Positions 1-49,400 of a DNA stretch of 49,400 nucleotides are shown piece by piece; within the stretch, counting starts at the first letter, position 1; each line of letters starts with the position of its first letter. The notes beneath the pieces are model-generated. The model worked only from the letters and a program-made list of their open reading frames with translations, was not told the origin of the DNA and searched no databases. The translations under genes were made by a program, and so were the position numbers. Location: IMG/VR virus record IMGVR_UViG_3300025852_000005, positions 1 through 49,400 of that record. The stretch is one strand, 5' to 3'. This stretch comes from a virus (lineage: Duplodnaviria; Caudoviricetes).

Positions 1-127
<127 letters not shown>

Positions 128-537
128 CATAGTACAGTGCATACTATGGGCATGAGTATGCAGTACAAACGCCATGCCAACATGGGTACAAATAGCGTGC
201 CATTGTGCATAGCCTAGCCTGCCATGCTACATGCATACAATACAAAGCATATACATAGTGCATAGTACAACGTATACCCCTAGTCATACAGCACAATACT
301 ACAATGTGATGCTATAGGGGATGGGGTAGACTAGGGCATACACTCTACCCTTGTAGTCTGATTGCAATGGATGCTATACCCCTCCCCTATTCTGTGCTTT
401 GCAGCAGCACGGCGGGTCGCCCTTCCGACGAATCGCCAGATTTCCAGAGTTAGTGCGCTAACCCATTGACACTTCCACACTCACGCTGACCTGCCCATTC
501 CCTCCAACTATCAGCCAACTATTAGGACTGATCAACT

Positions 538-566
538 TTGACATCAACACGGATTGGTGATATACT
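538..566 (+). promoter_or_regulatory. sigma70/sigmaA-type promoter
   Basis: TTGACA(538-543)-17 bp-TATACT(561-566), upstream of the endonuclease VII gene. Confidence 0.75.
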
Positions 567-608
567 GACTCCATGAAGTAGCAATCAAGTATTAGCCAAG
601 TATCAACA

Positions 609-1028
609 GTGAGGAAATACGGCATGGGTTATCCCACGGGTATTGAAAAAGACGGGCGATCCTACGCAGTTGATGGAATCAGAACATGTACGCTGTGTCT
701 GGAACAGATGCCCGATACCCCCGAGTTCTTCTATACGCACCCGACAGGAGAACGTCGAGCGTGGTGCAAGCGGTGCTTCCAAAAACAAACTCGTGCAACG
801 CGGTATGCAAAATATGGCCTCTCGGCGGCTGAGTATAACGCGATGGTCATTACACAGGATGGCAGGTGTGCCATTTGTGGAGCGGTGGGTGAACTCAGCA
901 TTGATCACTGTCATACCTCGGGGAACGTGCGGGGACTCCTATGCGGCACATGCAACACGGGTTTGGGCATGTTCAAGGACGACCCCAAACTGTTGCACCT
1001 TGCGATAGACTATCTCTCCCCGAACTGA
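609..1028 (+). CDS. Recombination endonuclease VII-family (His-Me finger) nuclease
   Basis: CAICG...LSIDHCHTSGNVRGLLCGTCNTGLGMFKDDP...AIDYL signature plus N-terminal CxxC pairs. Start may be ATG 624. Confidence 0.85.
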   Translation: MRKYGMGYPTGIEKDGRSYAVDGIRTCTLCLEQMPDTPEFFYTHPTGERRAWCKRCFQKQTRATRYAKYGLSAAEYNAMVITQDGRCAICGAVGELSIDHCHTSGNVRGLLCGTCNTGLGMFKDDPKLLHLAIDYLSPN

Positions 1029-1185
1029 CAGCCTACTCCCTGTCATCCCACTCCTGATCGACAGCATCTACCCTGTTGCCCCAACACCCTCTCAACACTC
1101 ACTCGTGATGGTATTATCTCCCTCACCCCGACAACTATCTGACCCCTGTTTCCCAATCGGGATACACACCCTGCGCAGGAAACAC

Positions 1186-1214
1186 TTGACACCGTGGCCA
1201 CGGAGGCGTATCAT
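1186..1214 (+). promoter_or_regulatory. sigma70/sigmaA-type promoter with no convincing downstream CDS
   Basis: TTGACA(1186-1191)-17 bp-TATCAT(1209-1214). Confidence 0.7.
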
Positions 1215-1220
1215 GTCACA

Positions 1221-1555
1221 CGGAGTCCCCCGTAGGTGGCGCGACACAGGCGGGGTGGAGCGGCGAGTATGCCTCAGCCGCACGTCGTCGGTAGTGGAGG
1301 GCCGGAAAGGCCCCGTAGGGGCCGACGACACACAGATCAATGCCGCCTCATCAGCGGCTACCCCGGAGCGCGATGCGCGAAGGGGCGAAGCCCTCGGTGA
1401 TGCCGAGGCCGGGGCGGGGAGCGGGGTGCATCCCGTCCGCCCCGCATATCAAGGCTCGTCGGCTTGCTGAGTAGTCGGATGGCGATGAAAAGCCCTGACG
1501 AGGCACAGCGAAAAGCCCGTTCCCGGAGTGGCCGAGAGCGGGCTTTCGCATGTCT
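1221..1555 (+). ncRNA. Putative structured non-coding RNA of unknown class
   Basis: Lies between a consensus promoter and a terminator hairpin. Contains many nested stems (1260-1281, 1284-1329, 1342-1358, 1251-58/1358-65, 1410-1444, 1455-62/1495-1502). No credible ORF. Confidence 0.5.
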
Positions 1556-1556
1556 T
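1508..1556. terminator. Intrinsic terminator hairpin, probably bidirectional
   Basis: GCGAAAAGCCCGTTC...GAGCGGGCTTTCGC followed by ATGTCTT. Also lies just past the end of the leftward operon (1597). Confidence 0.65.
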
Positions 1557-1596
1557 GAAAAAATCCAGCAGAATCCAACGAGTTTGTGCGGTAATA

Positions 1597-1812
1597 CTAG
1601 GCCGTGCGACCGATACGGACGATATGGACGAACCCCCACACCACATCCAGAATGATGCCGTTCGTGTCATACACGATGAACCCGTCACGCTCCCTGATCC
1701 GCCACACGTAGCCGATGCCGAGAATCGACACGGCCTCCGTGACGACGTTCGACACGTCCTCGCCGTTGAGATAGACCTTGTACCGCCAGCCGTCCCCCAC
1801 GTTGGCTCTCAT
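1597..1812 (-). CDS. Hypothetical protein (MRANVGDGWRYKVYLNG...)
   Basis: ATGA overlap with the upstream ORF at 1809-1812; last gene of the leftward operon. Confidence 0.6.
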   Translation of the reverse strand: MRANVGDGWRYKVYLNGEDVSNVVTEAVSILGIGYVWRIRERDGFIVYDTNGIILDVVWGFVHIVRIGRTA

Positions 1813-2045
1813 GCCTGCACCCTCCCGAACACCTTGACCACGGGGGTCGTGACCCGCGCCGTCAGCACTTTCTCCGCCACGCCGTCGAGCACCATACGCA
1901 TTGGCTGCCCGAGGGTGATGTCGCTGCACTCGACGAGGCGCATCCACGCCCCGTCTTTGCGCATCGGTGCTCCACCGAACCTGCGGACGAGCACGCCGTC
2001 GTTGGAGAAGTCGTACACCGTCCCACTCTTTGTAGTCACTAGCAT
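1809..2045 (-). CDS. Hypothetical protein
   Basis: GGAGGAG RBS and tight operon packing. Confidence 0.7.
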   Translation of the reverse strand: MLVTTKSGTVYDFSNDGVLVRRFGGAPMRKDGAWMRLVECSDITLGQPMRMVLDGVAEKVLTARVTTPVVKVFGRVQA

Positions 2046-2254
2046 ATCGGGTCTCCTCCGTTGAATAGTTGTTCGAGCACCCCAACGAACTCATACGCAG
2101 CCTCGACGGACGAGAACGAGGCGATCTTGTGACTGGTGTTGCCTCGCGTCACCATCAGAGAGGGTCGCTTGCCGAACTCCGGCATGTCGGTGGGGCCGAT
2201 GGACACGTGGCCGTTGCCCCAGTGGAAGAAGATGTGCTTCTTCGCGTCAGCCAT
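2039..2254 (-). CDS. Hypothetical protein
   Basis: AAGGA RBS and overlaps with both neighbours. Confidence 0.65.
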   Translation of the reverse strand: MADAKKHIFFHWGNGHVSIGPTDMPEFGKRPSLMVTRGNTSHKIASFSSVEAAYEFVGVLEQLFNGGDPIC

Positions 2255-2681
2255 TGTACCTGTCCTTCGCCTCGACGACTTCGTAGAACACCGGGATGTT
2301 GCGCAGGTGCGCGAAGCCTATCTCCTTTGCTACACCTGTCGAGCGCGCGGTGAGTAGGTCGGGACAGACGTACACCGCGTCACAGCGCATCAGCAGCGCG
2401 AGATCGTACGCGTACCAGAACTCGGGTGGATGCGGCGAGAGCATGTCCACGACGAGACTGGCGTGCGGGACGAGCGGTATCCATCCGACCGCGAGCAGCG
2501 CGTCGAACGCCTTGATGGCATTGGCCGTGCCCTGTGTCGGGCACGCGCTGTAATAGCCTGCGATATAAATGACCGGACGCTCCTCGATGGGCCACGTCAG
2601 CGGGTCGCTGTCGAGCGAGAATCCATTGGGACAATGGATGAGTTCGCGCAGGATGGACTCTTCGTGTTCCTTGATGCTCAT
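2247..2681 (-). CDS. Nucleoside 2-deoxyribosyltransferase-like (DUF4406-type) protein
   Basis: IYIAGYYS...PLVPH...DLALLMRCDAVYV...STGVAKEIGFAHLRNIPVF pattern. GGAGG RBS before ATG 2681. Confidence 0.7.
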   Translation of the reverse strand: MSIKEHEESILRELIHCPNGFSLDSDPLTWPIEERPVIYIAGYYSACPTQGTANAIKAFDALLAVGWIPLVPHASLVVDMLSPHPPEFWYAYDLALLMRCDAVYVCPDLLTARSTGVAKEIGFAHLRNIPVFYEVVEAKDRYNG

Positions 2682-3184
2682 CGTACCTCCCAGTTCGGCA
2701 GACTGTTCCACATACAGCAGGACAGGCACGGCTCGTCGCTACCCGCAACTGGAAGATAGTGACACGTTTCGCAGTCGTGTACCGCACTCGCCTGACTCGG
2801 CACATGCCCCATCGCGTCATTGAGCCGCTTCACGATGTCGATTGTCTGCTCAGTGTATGGTCTATCATCCTTCTCGGGGTGGGTCTTACCGTATTCCATC
2901 AGCGCGAAAGCGTGGAACACGACAGCTGCGAGGTGATGACTGCCGGTCTCCTCGTCGATGTCCTCGCCACGCCAGAACGCCCACGCGTGACGCATCATCG
3001 CGCCAAAGGACTTCGACCACGCGTACCCGCGCTCCCAGTTGCGATCCGCATACTTCTTGGCACCGACGCCATAATGACGCGCAACGGCTTCGAACGGTGC
3101 AGCCGGAATGAGGTCGAATCGCTCCAACTTCACGCCCTTCTCCGCCCCCGTATCGACATCTACAGTGTGGACTTCGCTACTCAT
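2678..3184 (-). CDS. dATP/dGTP diphosphohydrolase domain protein (DUF5664 family)
   Basis: RFDLIP...VARHYGVGAKKYADRNWERG...AMMRHAWAFWRGEDIDEETGSHHLAAVVFH motif, plus a C-terminal Cys-rich tail. Confidence 0.85.
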   Translation of the reverse strand: MSSEVHTVDVDTGAEKGVKLERFDLIPAAPFEAVARHYGVGAKKYADRNWERGYAWSKSFGAMMRHAWAFWRGEDIDEETGSHHLAAVVFHAFALMEYGKTHPEKDDRPYTEQTIDIVKRLNDAMGHVPSQASAVHDCETCHYLPVAGSDEPCLSCCMWNSLPNWEVR

Positions 3185-3399
3185 CGCCGTCCCGCCTTCT
3201 CAACGATGAATGCACACAGACCCCACAGCATGATGAGCGCAATGAATCCAAGAGGGATGAGTGTCGGTGTCCACACCCACCACCACGACCACGTAACGAG
3301 ACCTGCCAACTTCAGGATGAGAAACACTATCTGCACGACTGTCAGACACCCCATACTGCCGTTGTTCGGCTGCGTGCTCTCCATGAACTTTCCTCTCAT
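3181..3399 (-). CDS. Small membrane protein
   Basis: IVFLILKLAGLVTWSWWWVWTP, a common phage two-TM protein pattern. Confidence 0.7.
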   Translation of the reverse strand: MRGKFMESTQPNNGSMGCLTVVQIVFLILKLAGLVTWSWWWVWTPTLIPLGFIALIMLWGLCAFIVEKAGRR

Positions 3400-3596
3400 T
3401 ATGGCCTCCGCTTTCTCTCCTTGAAGAACTCCCGCGTCGTGCCGGGGTACCACGGGACGACAGGAGGATTCGTGAATACAAGTTTCCCATCGGCCCCGCA
3501 CTCGGGGCACGGAGCAGGATCGTCGCACTCGCTCATCGCGCGCTGGACTTCCCACCGCTCGTCACACAGCGGGCACTTCATATCATAGCGAGGCAC
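3399..3596 (-). CDS. FmdB-family zinc-ribbon protein
   Basis: MPRYDMKCPLC...E....M.E.....CPECG; AAGGAG RBS. Confidence 0.8.
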   Translation of the reverse strand: MPRYDMKCPLCDERWEVQRAMSECDDPAPCPECGADGKLVFTNPPVVPWYPGTTREFFKERKRRP

Positions 3597-3786
3597 GAGA
3601 CATCCGCTCCTTCAGATGGCCGTCACACGCGGGTGGTTGCATGTCTGTGGTCGTGTCCAGACGGATAGCAGGTTCGCCGCCGCATCGCCAGCACGTCCAA
3701 CGATGCCACACGGCCCCGTCGTGATCACGACTGACGGTATGCGAGTGCCAGTCACACGTTTCGCAACTTCCGTGGGGGTTGCTCAT
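3583..3786 (-). CDS. Small Cys-rich hypothetical protein
   Basis: CxxC motifs and ATGA coupling to the upstream gene. Confidence 0.55.
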   Translation of the reverse strand: MSNPHGSCETCDWHSHTVSRDHDGAVWHRWTCWRCGGEPAIRLDTTTDMQPPACDGHLKERMSRASL

Positions 3787-3947
3787 CTGCGTGCCAGTTG
3801 GTCGATGATGACCAGCATCGCCGCGAGGATGGCGCGGAGAAGGTCGGTGTCATACGACTTTGGCACAACATACGGCTGTGTGGCCTCGTGCTTGTTGGCA
3901 TCGGCCAAACGGTCATCAAGTTGTGATAGAAGTGTGCGGACTGCCAT
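3783..3947 (-). CDS. Hypothetical protein
   Basis: GGAG RBS before ATG 3947; operon packing. Confidence 0.55.
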   Translation of the reverse strand: MAVRTLLSQLDDRLADANKHEATQPYVVPKSYDTDLLRAILAAMLVIIDQLARR

Positions 3948-3948
3948 G

Positions 3949-4371
3949 TCAGTTCTCCACGTTCTGCCAACAACGACCATTGGCTATGTCGTAGACGGTT
4001 TGGTCGCATACTCCGTATCGCGCAGCAATGACCTGCCCGGTGATGTTCCCTGTGCCCAAGAGTTCTTTGATTTCTCGAACCTGTGCCGTCGTCAATGTGG
4101 TTCCTGCACCGCGTCGCATGTTCTCAGCGTGGGTCACGGGTTCGAGGTGCGAGGGTCGGACGCAGGGTCGATTTCGACACAGGTGATCCAACTGCAACCC
4201 GTCGGGAATCGGCCCGTTTTCACGTTCCCAGTAGACCCGATGCGCGCCCCTATACCGCTTGTTTATCCGCATATGACCATATCCGCCGTAATCGAGCGCG
4301 CGTTGCCACACCCAACACGGGGTCGTGTAGCCGCAGTCCTGTTCAAGATATTGATTCGGGGATAGGGTCAT
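3949..4371 (-). CDS. HNH homing endonuclease with C-terminal HTH (copy 1)
   Basis: CWVWQ...GYG...AHRVYWE...GPIPDGLQLDHLCRNRPCVRPSHLEPVTHAENMRRG. Confidence 0.9.
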   Translation of the reverse strand: MTLSPNQYLEQDCGYTTPCWVWQRALDYGGYGHMRINKRYRGAHRVYWERENGPIPDGLQLDHLCRNRPCVRPSHLEPVTHAENMRRGAGTTLTTAQVREIKELLGTGNITGQVIAARYGVCDQTVYDIANGRCWQNVEN

Positions 4372-4372
4372 G

Positions 4373-4552
4373 TCAGTTCTCATTCAGAAGATACTGCACC
4401 CAGCACGCGGTACACTCAGATTTTTCGGGGACGTAGGACTTCAAACCTCTTTCGTTGAGACACACGTGTCCTCGCTTCGGACACGTCTGCTCGCCCTCTG
4501 CTTGCTCGATTGCGATACGGATTACGCGGTCATATGGCAATGTGACGAGCAT
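4373..4552 (-). CDS. 59-aa Cys-containing hypothetical protein (absent from the ORF track)
   Basis: Translated by hand: MLVTLPYDRVIRIAIEQAEGEQTCPKRGHVCLNERGLKSYVPEKSECTACWVQYLLNEN. Purine-rich RBS; first gene after the leftward promoter. Confidence 0.55.
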   Translation of the reverse strand: MLVTLPYDRVIRIAIEQAEGEQTCPKRGHVCLNERGLKSYVPEKSECTACWVQYLLNEN

Positions 4553-4591
4553 TCCTGCCCCTTCCTCGGTCTGTTGTGCTTCAATGAGACT

Positions 4592-4658
4592 AGTCTACCA
4601 CCCGAATCCGGCAAAATCAACCTTTTTCTCGACATTCGGCACGTATACCTGCTATAAT
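4592..4658. promoter_or_regulatory. Back-to-back divergent promoters
   Basis: Minus: TTGATT(4620-4615)-17-TAGACT(4597-4592) with TG extension. Plus: TCGACA(4629)-18-TATAAT(4653-4658) with TGn extension. Confidence 0.65.
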
Positions 4659-4697
4659 GGGCGCGGAAATAGCAACTATAGACCCCACGGAGGGCCG

Positions 4698-5306
4698 ATG
4701 TTGACACTACTGCTGCCCGTGATCCGGCCTTGGACGCGCACCGCCGTCTGTGATGCCATTGCCGCGTCTGACATTCCTCGTGAGAAGTGTATCGTCATTC
4801 TTGACGCGCCCGATTGTGAATCGTGGTTGCTCACACTCTGGTCTCTAGGCTTCGACGTCCACTCATACGTCCGGCACAACCCATATCCGCCCGAGGGACG
4901 GGTCGAACGGCGTGACCGGCACCGTGCAATGGTGAAATACAGCCAATCTTTGGTACCTGACGGCCCGTTGCTGTGTCTTGAGGACGACGTACTCGTCCCT
5001 CCCGACATTTACGCTCGTCTCACGACACTTGCACCCACGAACATGACGGGTGTGCAGGTCGCGCGGCACGAGAATCGCAATCCTGTCGTCTATCCGCTGC
5101 GTCATACCTACAGCACGGGTTTTGAGACTGTCGATGGCGCTGGCTTGGGCTGTTTGATGACCACGGGCGAGGAGTACCGTCACGCGCTGCTTGGTGACGG
5201 CCCCGGCCCTGTAGACTACGAACTCACATCGCAGTTGGAGGAGTTGATCATCGACTGGGATTGCATCTGCGGTCATCTGACGCCGGATGGGGTGTTGCTC
5301 CCGTGA
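4698..5306 (+). CDS. Putative GT-A fold glycosyltransferase
   Basis: N-terminal LLLPV strand, LLCLEDDVLVP (DxD-like) and VDGAGLGCLM motifs. GGAGG RBS before ATG 4698. Confidence 0.65.
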   Translation: MLTLLLPVIRPWTRTAVCDAIAASDIPREKCIVILDAPDCESWLLTLWSLGFDVHSYVRHNPYPPEGRVERRDRHRAMVKYSQSLVPDGPLLCLEDDVLVPPDIYARLTTLAPTNMTGVQVARHENRNPVVYPLRHTYSTGFETVDGAGLGCLMTTGEEYRHALLGDGPGPVDYELTSQLEELIIDWDCICGHLTPDGVLLP

Positions 5307-6781
5307 TTCCGAAGATCATCTACACGACTTGGATTTCCGACAAACCGATGCCCGCGAAGTTCGAGCCGTACATCGAGTCGTGGCGCAAGGTCATGCCCGA
5401 CTACGAGATAGTCGTCCTCGGTCTCGACAACATCAAGCACAACCCGTGGGTGGACGCGGCCTTGGCGGCAGGCAACAACGTGCTTGCGAGCAACTACGCC
5501 CGCTGTCAGGCGGTCTACGACACGGGTGGCGTGTACCTCGACGTGGACGTGGAAGTGCTCAAGTCCTTCGATGACTTGCTCCACGATGCGTGTTTCGTCG
5601 GCTCAGAGGAGGAAAAGTGGCTCGGCTGCGCCGTATTCGGTGCCGAAGCGGGACACCCATTTCTCGCTGAGTGTATGCGATACATCGAAGGTTTCGACAT
5701 CGCGTCGAAGCATGTCGAGAATGAGACCGGGCCGCGCGCGTTCACCGAACTCCTGCGTCGGCGCGGGTGGTATCACCAACGATCCGTTCCAATGGTGTTC
5801 GGTGATGTCAAGGTCTACCCGCGCACGTACTTCTACCCGTACCTCTACACGGAGACGTTCGATCCGCGCTGCATCAAGCCCGAGACGGTCGCGGTGCATC
5901 ATTGGGCGCACTCGTGGAATCCCGTGCTCAAAGAGCCGGTATCCATCATCATCCCCTGTTACAATCAGGCCGAGTATCTGTGTGAGGCCATCGACAGCGC
6001 GCTCGCGCAGACCGTTCCGCCACACGAGATCATCGTGGTGGACGACGGGTCGAAGACGGGATGGGTCGCCGCGCTCACCGCGCCCTACGGCGACACGGTG
6101 ACGACCATCGTCACGCCGAATCGTGGTGTGGCGGCGGCTCGAAACATGGGTATCCGCGTCGCCACGGGGAAGTGGATAGCCACCCTCGACGCGGATGACC
6201 AACTCGCGCCGGAATACATCGAGAAGATGATCGGCAAGAGCGACATCGTGTCCGCCGTCCTTGAGACCTTCGGTTCCGAGAATAGGCGATGGGTACCACC
6301 GAAAGTGAACCCGACGTGGCAGGACTTCGCCCGTCAGAACCACATTATGTGCTGTTCCCTCTACAAGCGGGAGATATGGGAACGCGTCGGCGGGTATGAC
6401 GAGTCGATGCGCGACGGGTACGAGGACTGGGATTTCTGGACGCGGGCCACGCACAAGGGGTATGGGGTACATGTCGTGCCCGAGACCTTGTTCTTCTATC
6501 GCAAGCACCCCATCGACCGCAAGCACATCCGTGGCTCGGTAGACGGGGCTAGGGTCAAAGACGCGGCACTTCGCACGTACATGCACAACAAGTGGGCCGC
6601 GCTCGGTATCCCGTCGCAGCCCGCTGCCGCGCTGCGTACCGCACCGCTTCACTATCCCGTCACGCTGGCCGTGACAGTCGAGTACAAGAGTAAGACGTAC
6701 CCCAAGGGTACGAAGATCGACCGCCCGACCGCTGTGGCCCTCAAAGCCGCAGGTCTACTCACAGACCCGCGTATCGAGTAG
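5303..6781 (+). CDS. Two-domain glycosyltransferase: GT32/OCH1-like DXD domain plus GT2 domain
   Basis: IPKIIYTTW...SW....PDYE...YDTGGVYLDVDVEVLKSFDDL...TGP (GT32). VSIIIPCYNQAEYL...IIVVDDGS...NRGVAAARN...LDADD...GGYDE...EDWDFW (GT2). GTGA overlap with the upstream gene. Confidence 0.9.
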   Translation: MIPKIIYTTWISDKPMPAKFEPYIESWRKVMPDYEIVVLGLDNIKHNPWVDAALAAGNNVLASNYARCQAVYDTGGVYLDVDVEVLKSFDDLLHDACFVGSEEEKWLGCAVFGAEAGHPFLAECMRYIEGFDIASKHVENETGPRAFTELLRRRGWYHQRSVPMVFGDVKVYPRTYFYPYLYTETFDPRCIKPETVAVHHWAHSWNPVLKEPVSIIIPCYNQAEYLCEAIDSALAQTVPPHEIIVVDDGSKTGWVAALTAPYGDTVTTIVTPNRGVAAARNMGIRVATGKWIATLDADDQLAPEYIEKMIGKSDIVSAVLETFGSENRRWVPPKVNPTWQDFARQNHIMCCSLYKREIWERVGGYDESMRDGYEDWDFWTRATHKGYGVHVVPETLFFYRKHPIDRKHIRGSVDGARVKDAALRTYMHNKWAALGIPSQPAAALRTAPLHYPVTLAVTVEYKSKTYPKGTKIDRPTAVALKAAGLLTDPRIE

Positions 6782-7095: not shown

Positions 7096-7181
7096 TGAAG
7101 AACAAGGCTGCTCCGTTCACCAAGAAGGACGGCAAGGACAAGGCCGACAAGAAGAAACTGAAAAAGGTCGGCAAGAAGTAG
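7095..7181 (+). CDS. 28-aa Lys-rich peptide
   Basis: TGATG coupling to the holin stop; MKNKAAPFTKKDGKDKADKKKLKKVGKK. Confidence 0.4.
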   Translation: MKNKAAPFTKKDGKDKADKKKLKKVGKK

Positions 7182-7264
7182 GGACATGGGCGGTCGCGCA
7201 CACGGTTCTGCTCGTTACGGGGTGCGACGCGGTGCGTAAGGGGCAAGGCGCGCCACCGATTTTC

Positions 7265-30595: not shown

Positions 30596-31027
30596 CTAGT
30601 CGAAGTCCTCTGCGTCGTCCTCGACCGGAGCGTCCGTGTCTCCGAACGGGGTGCCCTCACCGATGGTTTGCTTGATGTTGGCGAAGACCGGGATGATACC
30701 ATTCGCGTTCTCTCGCGTGCCGTCCTTGTGGACGATCTCGACGAGCACGAACTGGTTGAGCAACTGGTCGATGTCGAATGCATCGCCCTCGTTGAGATCG
30801 ACGCCGAGACCGTTGAGCACGAGGAAGTAGAAGGCCGCGTACCCGCCGTCACTCGTGAGATCGTACTTGTTCTTGAGCGTGATACCCTCGACATCGACGA
30901 ACTTGATTTCGACGTTCGTGACGTTCGCACGGGGGAGACCCTTGACCTCGACGATCTTGAGGTTCTGCTCGCCCTCGTCCAACAGACGGAATCCCTTGGG
31001 CCGACCTTTTCCTACTACGTTAGGCAT
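30596..31027 (-). CDS. Putative single-stranded DNA-binding protein (DUF669-like)
   Basis: F.LL.EG....I..V pattern, beta-rich core, acidic tail (VEDDAEDFD). AAGGAG RBS before ATG 31027. Confidence 0.6.
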   Translation of the reverse strand: MPNVVGKGRPKGFRLLDEGEQNLKIVEVKGLPRANVTNVEIKFVDVEGITLKNKYDLTSDGGYAAFYFLVLNGLGVDLNEGDAFDIDQLLNQFVLVEIVHKDGTRENANGIIPVFANIKQTIGEGTPFGDTDAPVEDDAEDFD

Positions 31028-31559
31028 GACTGAACTCCTTTGATAGATTTTTCCATGTCCTGTGATGGACAACATCGTTGATGGTGCTGGCGGTTACGCC
31101 ATACATCCGTGCCAACTCGGCTTGCGATGTACCTAATACAGAACTCCTGATTTCGGCCACGATGGCACAAGTCAGTTTGGCGCTGGCACTACGTCTGACA
31201 TTCTCCGTCATCGAAACAGGTTCCAAATGTGATGGCCGGATGCACGCTCGGTTTCTGCACAGGTGATCCAACTGCATCCCAGTAGGGATTGGGCCATTCG
31301 CCCGTGTCCAATAAAACCGATGTGCATTCTGCATCTTTCCATGACACTTGGCCAATCCGTATCCGTTGTGCCCGAACGCCCGCTGCCAAACCCAGCAGGG
31401 TGTCTCGTATCCACAATCCCGCTCGATGTAATCCTTGGCTGCGTCTCGACACCGATGTCCCATCACAAATCGCATGGGCTGACCCTTGACCCAGCCTCTT
31501 GCTGCTCGGGTTATCGGTGCAGGCTTGGTGGTTTGGCCGCAGCCGCATTCGCATAGCAT
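31020..31559 (-). CDS. HNH endonuclease (copy 2) with N-terminal CECGCG and C-terminal HTH
   Basis: CWVWQ...AHR....GPIP.GMQLDHLCRNRACIRPSHLEPV...ENVRR. Confidence 0.9.
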   Translation of the reverse strand: MLCECGCGQTTKPAPITRAARGWVKGQPMRFVMGHRCRDAAKDYIERDCGYETPCWVWQRAFGHNGYGLAKCHGKMQNAHRFYWTRANGPIPTGMQLDHLCRNRACIRPSHLEPVSMTENVRRSASAKLTCAIVAEIRSSVLGTSQAELARMYGVTASTINDVVHHRTWKNLSKEFSHA

Positions 31560-46329: not shown

Positions 46330-46610
46330 ATATCGGTCGTTTTGACCGGCTGGTACCATTGTACCATAGGGGAAAGAGAAATGCAACGAAAACGCTAAAC
46401 ATTTTACATCGCTGCCAGTGGCATTTTCTTCTGACCTGCGGAAACTAGTTTTGTTTCTCTAATGTATAATGTTGTAGCAAAGTTTCTCTATAGGAAGAAA
46501 AACAAAGTAAAACACTAACAGTCATTAGAGAAACTTCCTGCACAACATTTTACATTCTGGAAAAAGGGCCTCTGACCTGCGATAAGCGTTTTACATTCTT
46601 GCCAGTGGGC
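46330..46610. other. AT-rich repeat-laden intergenic region, candidate replication origin
   Basis: AACATTTTACAT x2, TCTGACCTGCG x2, TGCCAGTGG x2, and a perfect inverted pair GTTTCTCTAATG(46453)/CATTAGAGAAAC(46523). Confidence 0.45.
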
Positions 46611-46658
46611 TGAAATACGAGGAATCGACGCAAAAGCGAGGTTTCGAGGTCCAAGGTC

Positions 46659-49273: not shown

Positions 49274-49400
<127 letters not shown>

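Follow-up and report, generated by a model that had tools for sequence, protein, structure and literature searches.

Purine-riboswitch aptamers have two short hairpins that stand on the base of a third helix and touch through their loops, the P1 C4 and P4 CI antisense RNAs carry loops complementary to sites in the phage's own transcript, and HEARO and omega RNAs stand in fixed linkage to a nuclease gene. The VS ribozyme comes from a fungal mitochondrial plasmid, in contrast to the bacterial phage considered here. At its I/V junction, two loops of the U-turn type are joined by three Watson-Crick pairs, and loop V carries the bases U696, G697, A698, C699, and U700 (PMC4138328). Among phage RNAs, ROOL is 659 nt long and was reported to be nonessential in one strain (PMC12286853), and Racrs (PMC10651486) and viral sgRNAs (10.64898/2026.06.01.729453) are small stand-alone decoys that bind a host defense protein.

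The locus analyzed here lies in the window, the whole stretch of 49,400 nt under study, which is an entire 49.4-kb tailed-phage record (IMGVR_UViG_3300025852_000005) with overlapping contig ends. The original prediction described a structured RNA of ~330 nt bounded by a promoter and a terminator; the conserved unit proved to be about one third of that size, namely, a ~105-nt core at 1342-1444 composed of four hairpins (H1 to H4) that are the same in the window and in one relative, phage G002 (Table 1). As in the VS ribozyme, two hairpin loops of the U-turn type would be paired, and loop 3 of G002 has the five bases of VS loop V, whereas five pairs are predicted for the core compared with three in VS, and neither the VS substrate internal loop nor its three-way junctions were seen by eye. 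U-turn sequence motifs of the VS type fit both phages, although the U-turn is a three-dimensional feature that is judged here from sequence alone; the likeness would be that of a recurrent motif and not of a ribozyme. The core also resembles the phi29 pRNA in being phage encoded and ~105 to 120 nt long, with two complementary loops and a 3-nt bulge in one helix (PMC3753930), and the pRNA hallmark of two mutually complementary loops was found in loops 1 and 3 (five covarying pairs). In contrast, the core has no 5'/3' helix that would close a three-way junction, it is absent from the complete relatives G001 and G012 whereas pRNA is an essential motor part, and the terminase large subunit and portal of this phage are of the siphophage type (PHROGs 38 and 64). 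ROOL and GOLLD are likewise phage borne and have kissing loops, but the core is at most one sixth of their size, its phage has no tRNA genes, and no Rfam match was obtained.

For the decoy mechanism proposed below, Racrs and viral sgRNAs would offer the best functional analogy, although the loop-loop fold of the core is no repeat hairpin; CRISPR-repeat and tracrRNA families gave no match at E values up to 10 in a search that covered the Rfam models. The parts of a purine riboswitch would be present in permuted order, while the junction is open, no gene lies downstream, and Rfam gave no match. With respect to tRNA, H1 has the geometry of an anticodon arm and H4 a 7+5/6-bp helix, whereas the core has no canonical T-loop. 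Hammerhead-like elements (CUGACGA at 1495-1501 and GAAA at 1510-1513) occur 3' of the core, and a hammerhead was rejected by eye, stem II having one pair and stem I not being formed; these elements had no Rfam match and are absent from G002. A comparison by eye with noncircular hammerhead permutations (PMC10085705) likewise gave no match.

The four-hairpin core and its covariation

All local hairpins listed in the original prediction are present, with 66 Watson-Crick and five G-U pairs in 13 helices and no mismatch in a coordinate check. The complementarity of loops 1 and 3 had been missed: the last five bases of the two loops are CAUCA/UGAUG in the window and AGUCA/UGACU in G002, fully Watson-Crick in both phages. 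Loop 1 in both phages starts with what we take to be a U-turn-type YUNR motif. In H4, the G-U pair at 1421/1436 is conserved, and the UGCA loop is palindromic in both phages. No helix surrounds H1 to H3 in the favored folds, and the G-U pairs of both cores favor the plus strand.

Table 1. Positions of the features discussed in the text (window numbering)
Feature	Position	Strand	Remarks
Endonuclease VII (HNH) gene	624..1028	+	PF02945, E 1.5e-24; own promoter
Sigma-70-type promoter signal TTGACA-17-TATCAT	1186..1214	+	11/12 consensus; equivalent site in G001, G002, and G012
85-codon ORF, probably no gene	1213..1470	+	GGAGG 6 nt upstream; ATG overlaps -10 box
5' leader, hairpins 1260-1281 and 1284-1329	1215..1341	+	Pair probabilities 0.99-1.0
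H1, 5 bp, 7-nt loop	1342..1358	+	Kept in G002, one C-G to U-G, loop altered
Helix of loops 1 and 3, 5 bp (predicted)	1349-1353 with 1398-1402	+	2/5 pairs change on both sides
H2	1361..1385	+	Closing pairs conserved; interiors unrelated, of unequal length, paired in both phages
H3, 6 bp, loop UGAUG (G002: GUGACU)	1392..1408	+	Kept in G002
H4, 7 bp, 3-nt bulge, 6 bp, UGCA loop	1411..1443	+	Loop-closing pair G-U to U-A
3' arm, asymmetric GAGUA/GAAA internal loop	1455..1502	+	z -2.2 on plus strand, -0.3 on minus strand
Terminator-like hairpin, short U-runs on both strands	1508..1549	+	z -5.0; faces convergent operon end
Last gene of convergent leftward operon	1597..1809	-	Codon score z 4.9; homolog in G012

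A model for which the window was the only input matched the G002 core at an E value of 1.5e-13, which was the sole other match among 15 sources. Identity between the window and G002 was 75% over the core (87% in H3-H4 and 82% in H1), compared with 66% and 72% for two neighboring genes and 43 to 46% for the core flanks. In the structural alignment, 70/70 cells were paired, with four pairs changed on both sides and one on one side; two of these four double changes lie in the loop-loop helix, and one depends on the alignment of H2. All nine substitutions in paired columns preserved pairing, while slid-alignment controls were 41 to 52% paired with no double change. None of 699 control loop pairs from this phage's folds reached five Watson-Crick pairs, the chance of such complementarity being 0.4 to 0.7% per random loop pair, and the kissing test was passed by two homologs and none of the 20 others among the 22 viral matches to the H1+H3 pattern. 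This covariation comes from two distinct sequences, from which the structure itself was derived, and 37/500 shuffles reached the observed level, a control that a two-row alignment cannot beat. The core is very probably a selected RNA structure. The covariation sought among homologs was thus seen between two sequences, and the claim of a phage-encoded structured RNA outside Rfam is supported for 1342-1444 by this covariation in addition to folding energy, but not for the 5' 120 nt or the 3' arm at 1455-1502, which are without a homolog.

Flanking sequence, folding energy, and the overlapping ORF

The promoter named in the original prediction is present at 1186-1214; promoter-like sites in positions 1 to 5000 numbered six, versus 2.5 in shuffles. 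No RNA run was listed for 1000-2200, a result that is neutral with regard to expression. The leader is found in the window phage only, its 46% identity to the G002 leader being the same as in shuffles, and three 5' regions compared among the phages showed no significant similarity (P values of 0.11 to 0.60). In the window phage alone, the loop UAUGC of hairpin 1260-1281 (1268-1272) is complementary to GCAUA at 1444-1448, directly after H4, a possible second long-range pairing. The 3' arm, for which no homolog was found, is specific to the window phage, and its internal loop may resemble a bulged-G motif. Of the predicted terminator, the hairpin is real, with position 1515 pairing with 1543, while the U-tract is too short for the terminator scan, whose list leaves the site out. 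Its 16-nt tail occurs in 43 viral stretches, G001 among them, 40 of which have a complementary arm beside it (a loose test with no control); because the tail is so generic, its presence in G001 is no sign of homology.

As predicted, the region folds better than its shuffles, with a z score of -3.77 for 1215-1556 and 0/100 shuffles equally stable. The score fell to -3.0 for 1221-1505, -2.2 for 1221-1447 (1/100 shuffles), and -1.4 for 1221-1372 (9/100), and a large share of the stability of 1215-1556 derives from the terminator-like hairpin taken alone. Among 120-nt tiles genome-wide, the terminator tile alone stands out (rank 9/411) and two 5' tiles rank 156 and 244, with the tiles being fixed, their edges cutting hairpins, and 10 shuffles being used per tile. 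The long-range stem at 1251/1365, which had been proposed to close a multibranch domain, was not upheld: it can be drawn and appears in the single minimum-free-energy fold of 1215-1556, but its probability is ~0 in the ensemble of 1221-1556 and 0.12 when the transcript stops at 1450, and it competes with a local hairpin at 1361/1385 that had been overlooked. The complete G002 transcript folds like its shuffles (z of about -0.7 to -1.1), and the G002 core has a z score of -2.8. Without a kissing term, the probability of H1 is 0.04 in the full window transcript, H1 is absent from the G002 centroid, and only in shorter transcripts is its probability high (0.83 and 0.91); forcing H1 and H3 together costs 2.4 kcal/mol in the full transcript of each phage.

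The statement that the region holds no credible ORF was too strong, since an 85-codon ORF with a ribosome-binding site is called by gene callers at 1213-1470. If this were the gene of an 85-amino-acid protein, read from a promoter at 538, the conservation would be that of a peptide. The GGAGG 6 nt ahead of the ATG, the absence of any terminator found between 1028 and 1186, a frame that in G002 is open over H2 to H4 with a 9-nt indel, 3/8 changed codons in H3-H4 that are synonymous, and a codon score of z 1.8 are in line with such a gene. However, its start codon overlaps the -10 box, its codon score compares with 2.2 to 4.9 for nine control genes, and its product is predicted to be disordered (pLDDT of 0.36; atlas matches below 0.8) and found no homolog other than itself among five candidates. 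Moreover, in the window register a stop falls within loop 1 of G002, a one-base indel follows H1, the ends are unrelated, and G002 offers the window frame no ribosome-binding site; the credible 40-amino-acid ORF of G002 does not align with the 85-amino-acid one. The original prediction would have yielded to homologs that conserve a reading frame rather than base pairs; the frame is indeed open over H2 to H4, but the nonsynonymous changes there are those that preserve pairs, and a protein-coding origin of the conservation is highly improbable.

The promoter slot, its relatives, and homolog searches

The annotated genes of the window include those for terminase, portal, capsid, tape measure, DNA polymerase, and primase-helicase. 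The nearest named phage is Eggerthella phage EL753P1 (capsid, 45% identity; terminase, 47%), and capsid relatives occur in 3/401 genomes from the phylum to which G027 belongs, a genome with a locus (L160) labeled Thermoleophilia; on these grounds, the host is likely an actinobacterium, perhaps of Coriobacteriia. Among ~50 listed capsid relatives with 56 to 91% identity, one with 68% identity carries the source label Deltaproteobacteria. Several further features of the genome were observed. A run of ~14 ATGCCC hexamers occupies 1-87 and 49275-49359, where the contig ends overlap; L067, an aligned copy, differs there by one gap, and no such run was seen in the equivalent regions of G001, G002, and G012. 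AT-rich intergenic repeats at ~46350-46620, possibly a replication origin, have the strongest folding z score of the genome (-7.9), and EL753P1 has an AT-rich repeat region at a similar end of its right arm. A two-domain glycosyltransferase gene (5303-6781, plus strand; PF04488 and PF00535) ahead of the virion genes suggests glycosylation of the virion or host surface. Three free-standing HNH-type endonuclease genes (624-1028, 3949-4383, and 31020-31559) have homologs at differing places in the relatives, as expected of mobile homing endonucleases. In G001 and G002, homologs of the endonuclease VII beside the locus lie at other sites, and the search of G012 yielded none; judged by gene order, the RNA element is not linked to this neighbor. 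An HNH-associated guide RNA was accordingly rejected, the G002 core having no endonuclease VII next to it.

A promoter aimed at the end of the leftward operon defines a slot that was found in four phages (the window, G001, G002, and G012), and the core is present in two of them (the window and G002). In G012, a complete genome with terminal repeats and a capsid of 71% identity, the slot holds the gene of a 29-amino-acid Lys-rich peptide and a plain terminator, while in G001, also complete with terminal repeats (capsid, 91%), it is filled by ~165 nt of different hairpins that end in the generic terminator tail; no model match to the core was obtained in either phage, and both slots were also read directly. 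In G002, which is 67% complete, the slot contains a credible 40-amino-acid ORF that has a GGAG at 6 nt, a codon z of 2.8, and two CxxC motifs; the core follows 5 nt past its stop, and no U-tract terminator lies downstream of the core. This ORF (L003 8086-8208, minus strand), for which no homolog was found, probably encodes a small zinc-binding protein. A Lys-rich peptide gene at 7096-7182 (plus strand) in the window resembles the G012 slot peptide (L316 2401-2312, minus strand) by eye, so this gene has moved. A conserved, C/T-rich noncoding block with repeated ACCCTGT boxes occurs at ~1030-1180 in the window, at 7960-7830 in L003 (minus strand), and at ~8630-8590 in L002 (minus strand); it precedes the promoter in the window and G001 but follows the core in G002, and therefore the modules of this region are shuffled. 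A second noncoding element of three hairpins is shared by G001 (L002 8150-8320, minus strand) and G002 (L003 7640-7810, minus strand), with 28 pairs and none changed on both sides, and is missing from the window.

The searches for known families were negative. Rfam 15, whose families include SRP RNA, RNase P RNA, 6S, Ms1, C4, riboswitches, ribozymes, ROOL, and GOLLD, gave no match in the window at the gathering threshold, while the best matches at E values up to 10 (E values of 0.13 to 9.5) were at chance level and far below gathering, and none was found at E values up to 5 in L313 and L071. The view that the element is not a tRNA, tmRNA, SRP RNA, or RNase P RNA holds, with no tRNA or tmRNA gene detected by ARAGORN in the 49.4-kb window and no family matched at threshold by the Rfam covariance models. 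By blastn against 50,697 named phages, the window had one match (46 nt; E value of 0.5) and G002 had 11 short ones at an E value of 4, and the plasmids searched gave 22 short matches with at most 35% coverage. Viral pattern scans returned 1, 2, and 22 stretches, the true ones being two of the 22; a metagenome scan by neighboring protein returned 15 loci, all of them either further copies of slots already known from the same three phages or distant proteins, and a descriptor search over the gathered loci returned the two cores and two unrelated matches. The RNA model found nothing in 5, 48, and 150 genomes, searches in which the top candidates per genome only were scored, and one true and one weak match (E value of 0.6) in 21 records. 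A genome pattern scan gave at least 120 of ~140 stretches, and 71/122 matches, the two phage copies included, have a 6-nt gap. Most of these 6-nt-gap matches, among those listed, are antisense to a conserved amino-acid motif that we take to belong to glutaminyl-tRNA synthetase, and by its coordinates the G029 match (E value of 0.004) sits at that same motif. An antisense role against a synthetase-like motif was dropped, as the window breaks the amino-acid motif yet keeps the hairpin.

No description of the core was found in the literature, of which the viral RNA catalog PMC10690425 was covered in part; one 15-nt core motif was not in the three searched supplements of that catalog, and its pipeline demanded three unique regions (Fremin et al. 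2023; PMC10690425). The core could be assigned to none of the families with which it was compared and, by sequence and predicted fold, appears to be an orphan phage RNA module.

Possible roles of the core

The evidence favors a selected, compact fold that would work by its shape. A packaging role, one of those first proposed, is disfavored by comparison of the relatives: an essential part of this kind is unlikely because G001 and G012, both complete and with capsids 91% and 71% identical, do without the core. Antisense action of the loops is also unlikely, the complements found in the window and 33.5 kb of G002 (67% complete) being of chance size (7 to 11 nt) with none at equivalent positions in both phages. 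Most of the conserved sequence is paired and the two loops covary, and with neither a long conserved unpaired stretch nor a syntenic target in the two phages, shape is favored over antisense. Our best guess, a tentative one, is an accessory early decoy RNA that acts in trans through its shape, a reading favored because the slot otherwise holds small accessory peptides, the promoter is of the host type, and the locus is near the genome end.

In such a decoy, the sigma-70-type promoter signal would drive an early transcript of ~330 nt, of which the core would be the working part. A 5-bp kiss of loops 1 and 3 within one molecule would lock the fold, with H1 and H3 side by side upon the base of H2, and the core may outlast nuclease trimming as a stable small RNA. 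It would be released from a 3' untranslated region in G002 and from the leader-and-terminator frame in the window. Like the small early accessory products in the slot of the relatives, the core would then bind a host RNA-binding or defense protein.

The position of the core in G002, directly past the stop of a credible 40-amino-acid ORF and with no U-tract hairpin after it, suits a cis role equally. The core could mark the end of the unit as a knot that either stops exonucleases or terminates transcription at the convergent leftward operon, which the slot faces in 4/4 phages. However, in the window a terminator-like hairpin distinct from the core stands ~65 nt past it and no credible ORF ends ahead of the core, G001 and G012 close the unit with a plain hairpin, and a terminator needs less than a covarying loop-loop helix, so that we consider this role unlikely, though worth keeping in mind. 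Covariation is blind to whether loops pair within or between molecules, and pairing of loops 1 and 3 between molecules would give dimers or rings comparable to those of pRNA, ROOL, and GOLLD, the last two of which have intermolecular kissing loops (PMC12286853). The lack of an enclosing helix around H1 to H3 in the favored fold and the palindromic UGCA of the H4 loop in both phages would suit oligomers, but a palindromic tetraloop is expected once in 16, H4 dimer energies do not discriminate (any hairpin scores alike), the core is far below ROOL (659 nt) or GOLLD in size, and its absence from two complete relatives speaks against an essential packaging part; we regard oligomers as improbable.

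It is distinctly doubtful that the core is a new self-cleaving ribozyme or a ligand-binding aptamer that processes or switches its own transcript. A compact module with sharp edges in two differing contexts would be expected of either, G002 loop 3 ends in UGACU as does VS loop V (U696-U700), and H1 and its alternative fold are 2.4 kcal/mol apart in both transcripts; nevertheless, no Rfam ribozyme or riboswitch appeared at E values up to 10, no gene lies downstream on the plus strand for a switch to control, and two sequences are too few to expose conserved catalytic bases. Finally, the stretch could be a DNA-level site or decaying GC-rich sequence in which the pairing arose by chance, given that 73% GC eases hairpin formation, two sequences only are at hand, the 5' tiles are ordinary genome-wide, and other noncoding blocks here are also conserved and shuffled among relatives. 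Against this, the loop complementarity survives two double changes while controls gave 0/699 and 0/20, G-U pairs fall on one strand, and the element stands behind a promoter in both phages, which leaves chance pairing very unlikely.

More broadly, it is possible, although on balance doubtful, that the core is the first example of a novel class of compact phage RNAs, a U-turn kissing-loop module that moves in and out of an early accessory slot otherwise filled by small proteins, where it would neutralize a host defense protein, form RNA-only rings, or self-cleave through a new chemistry. The two phages provide a natural pair of crossable loop variants of ~105 nt, in which the fold, the oligomer state, and self-cleavage are tractable in vitro. 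The phage decoy RNAs known so far imitate antitoxins or components of CRISPR systems. If the proposal is true, a small RNA trading places with peptide genes in a single early promoter slot would mean that RNA folds are exchanged as accessory genes.
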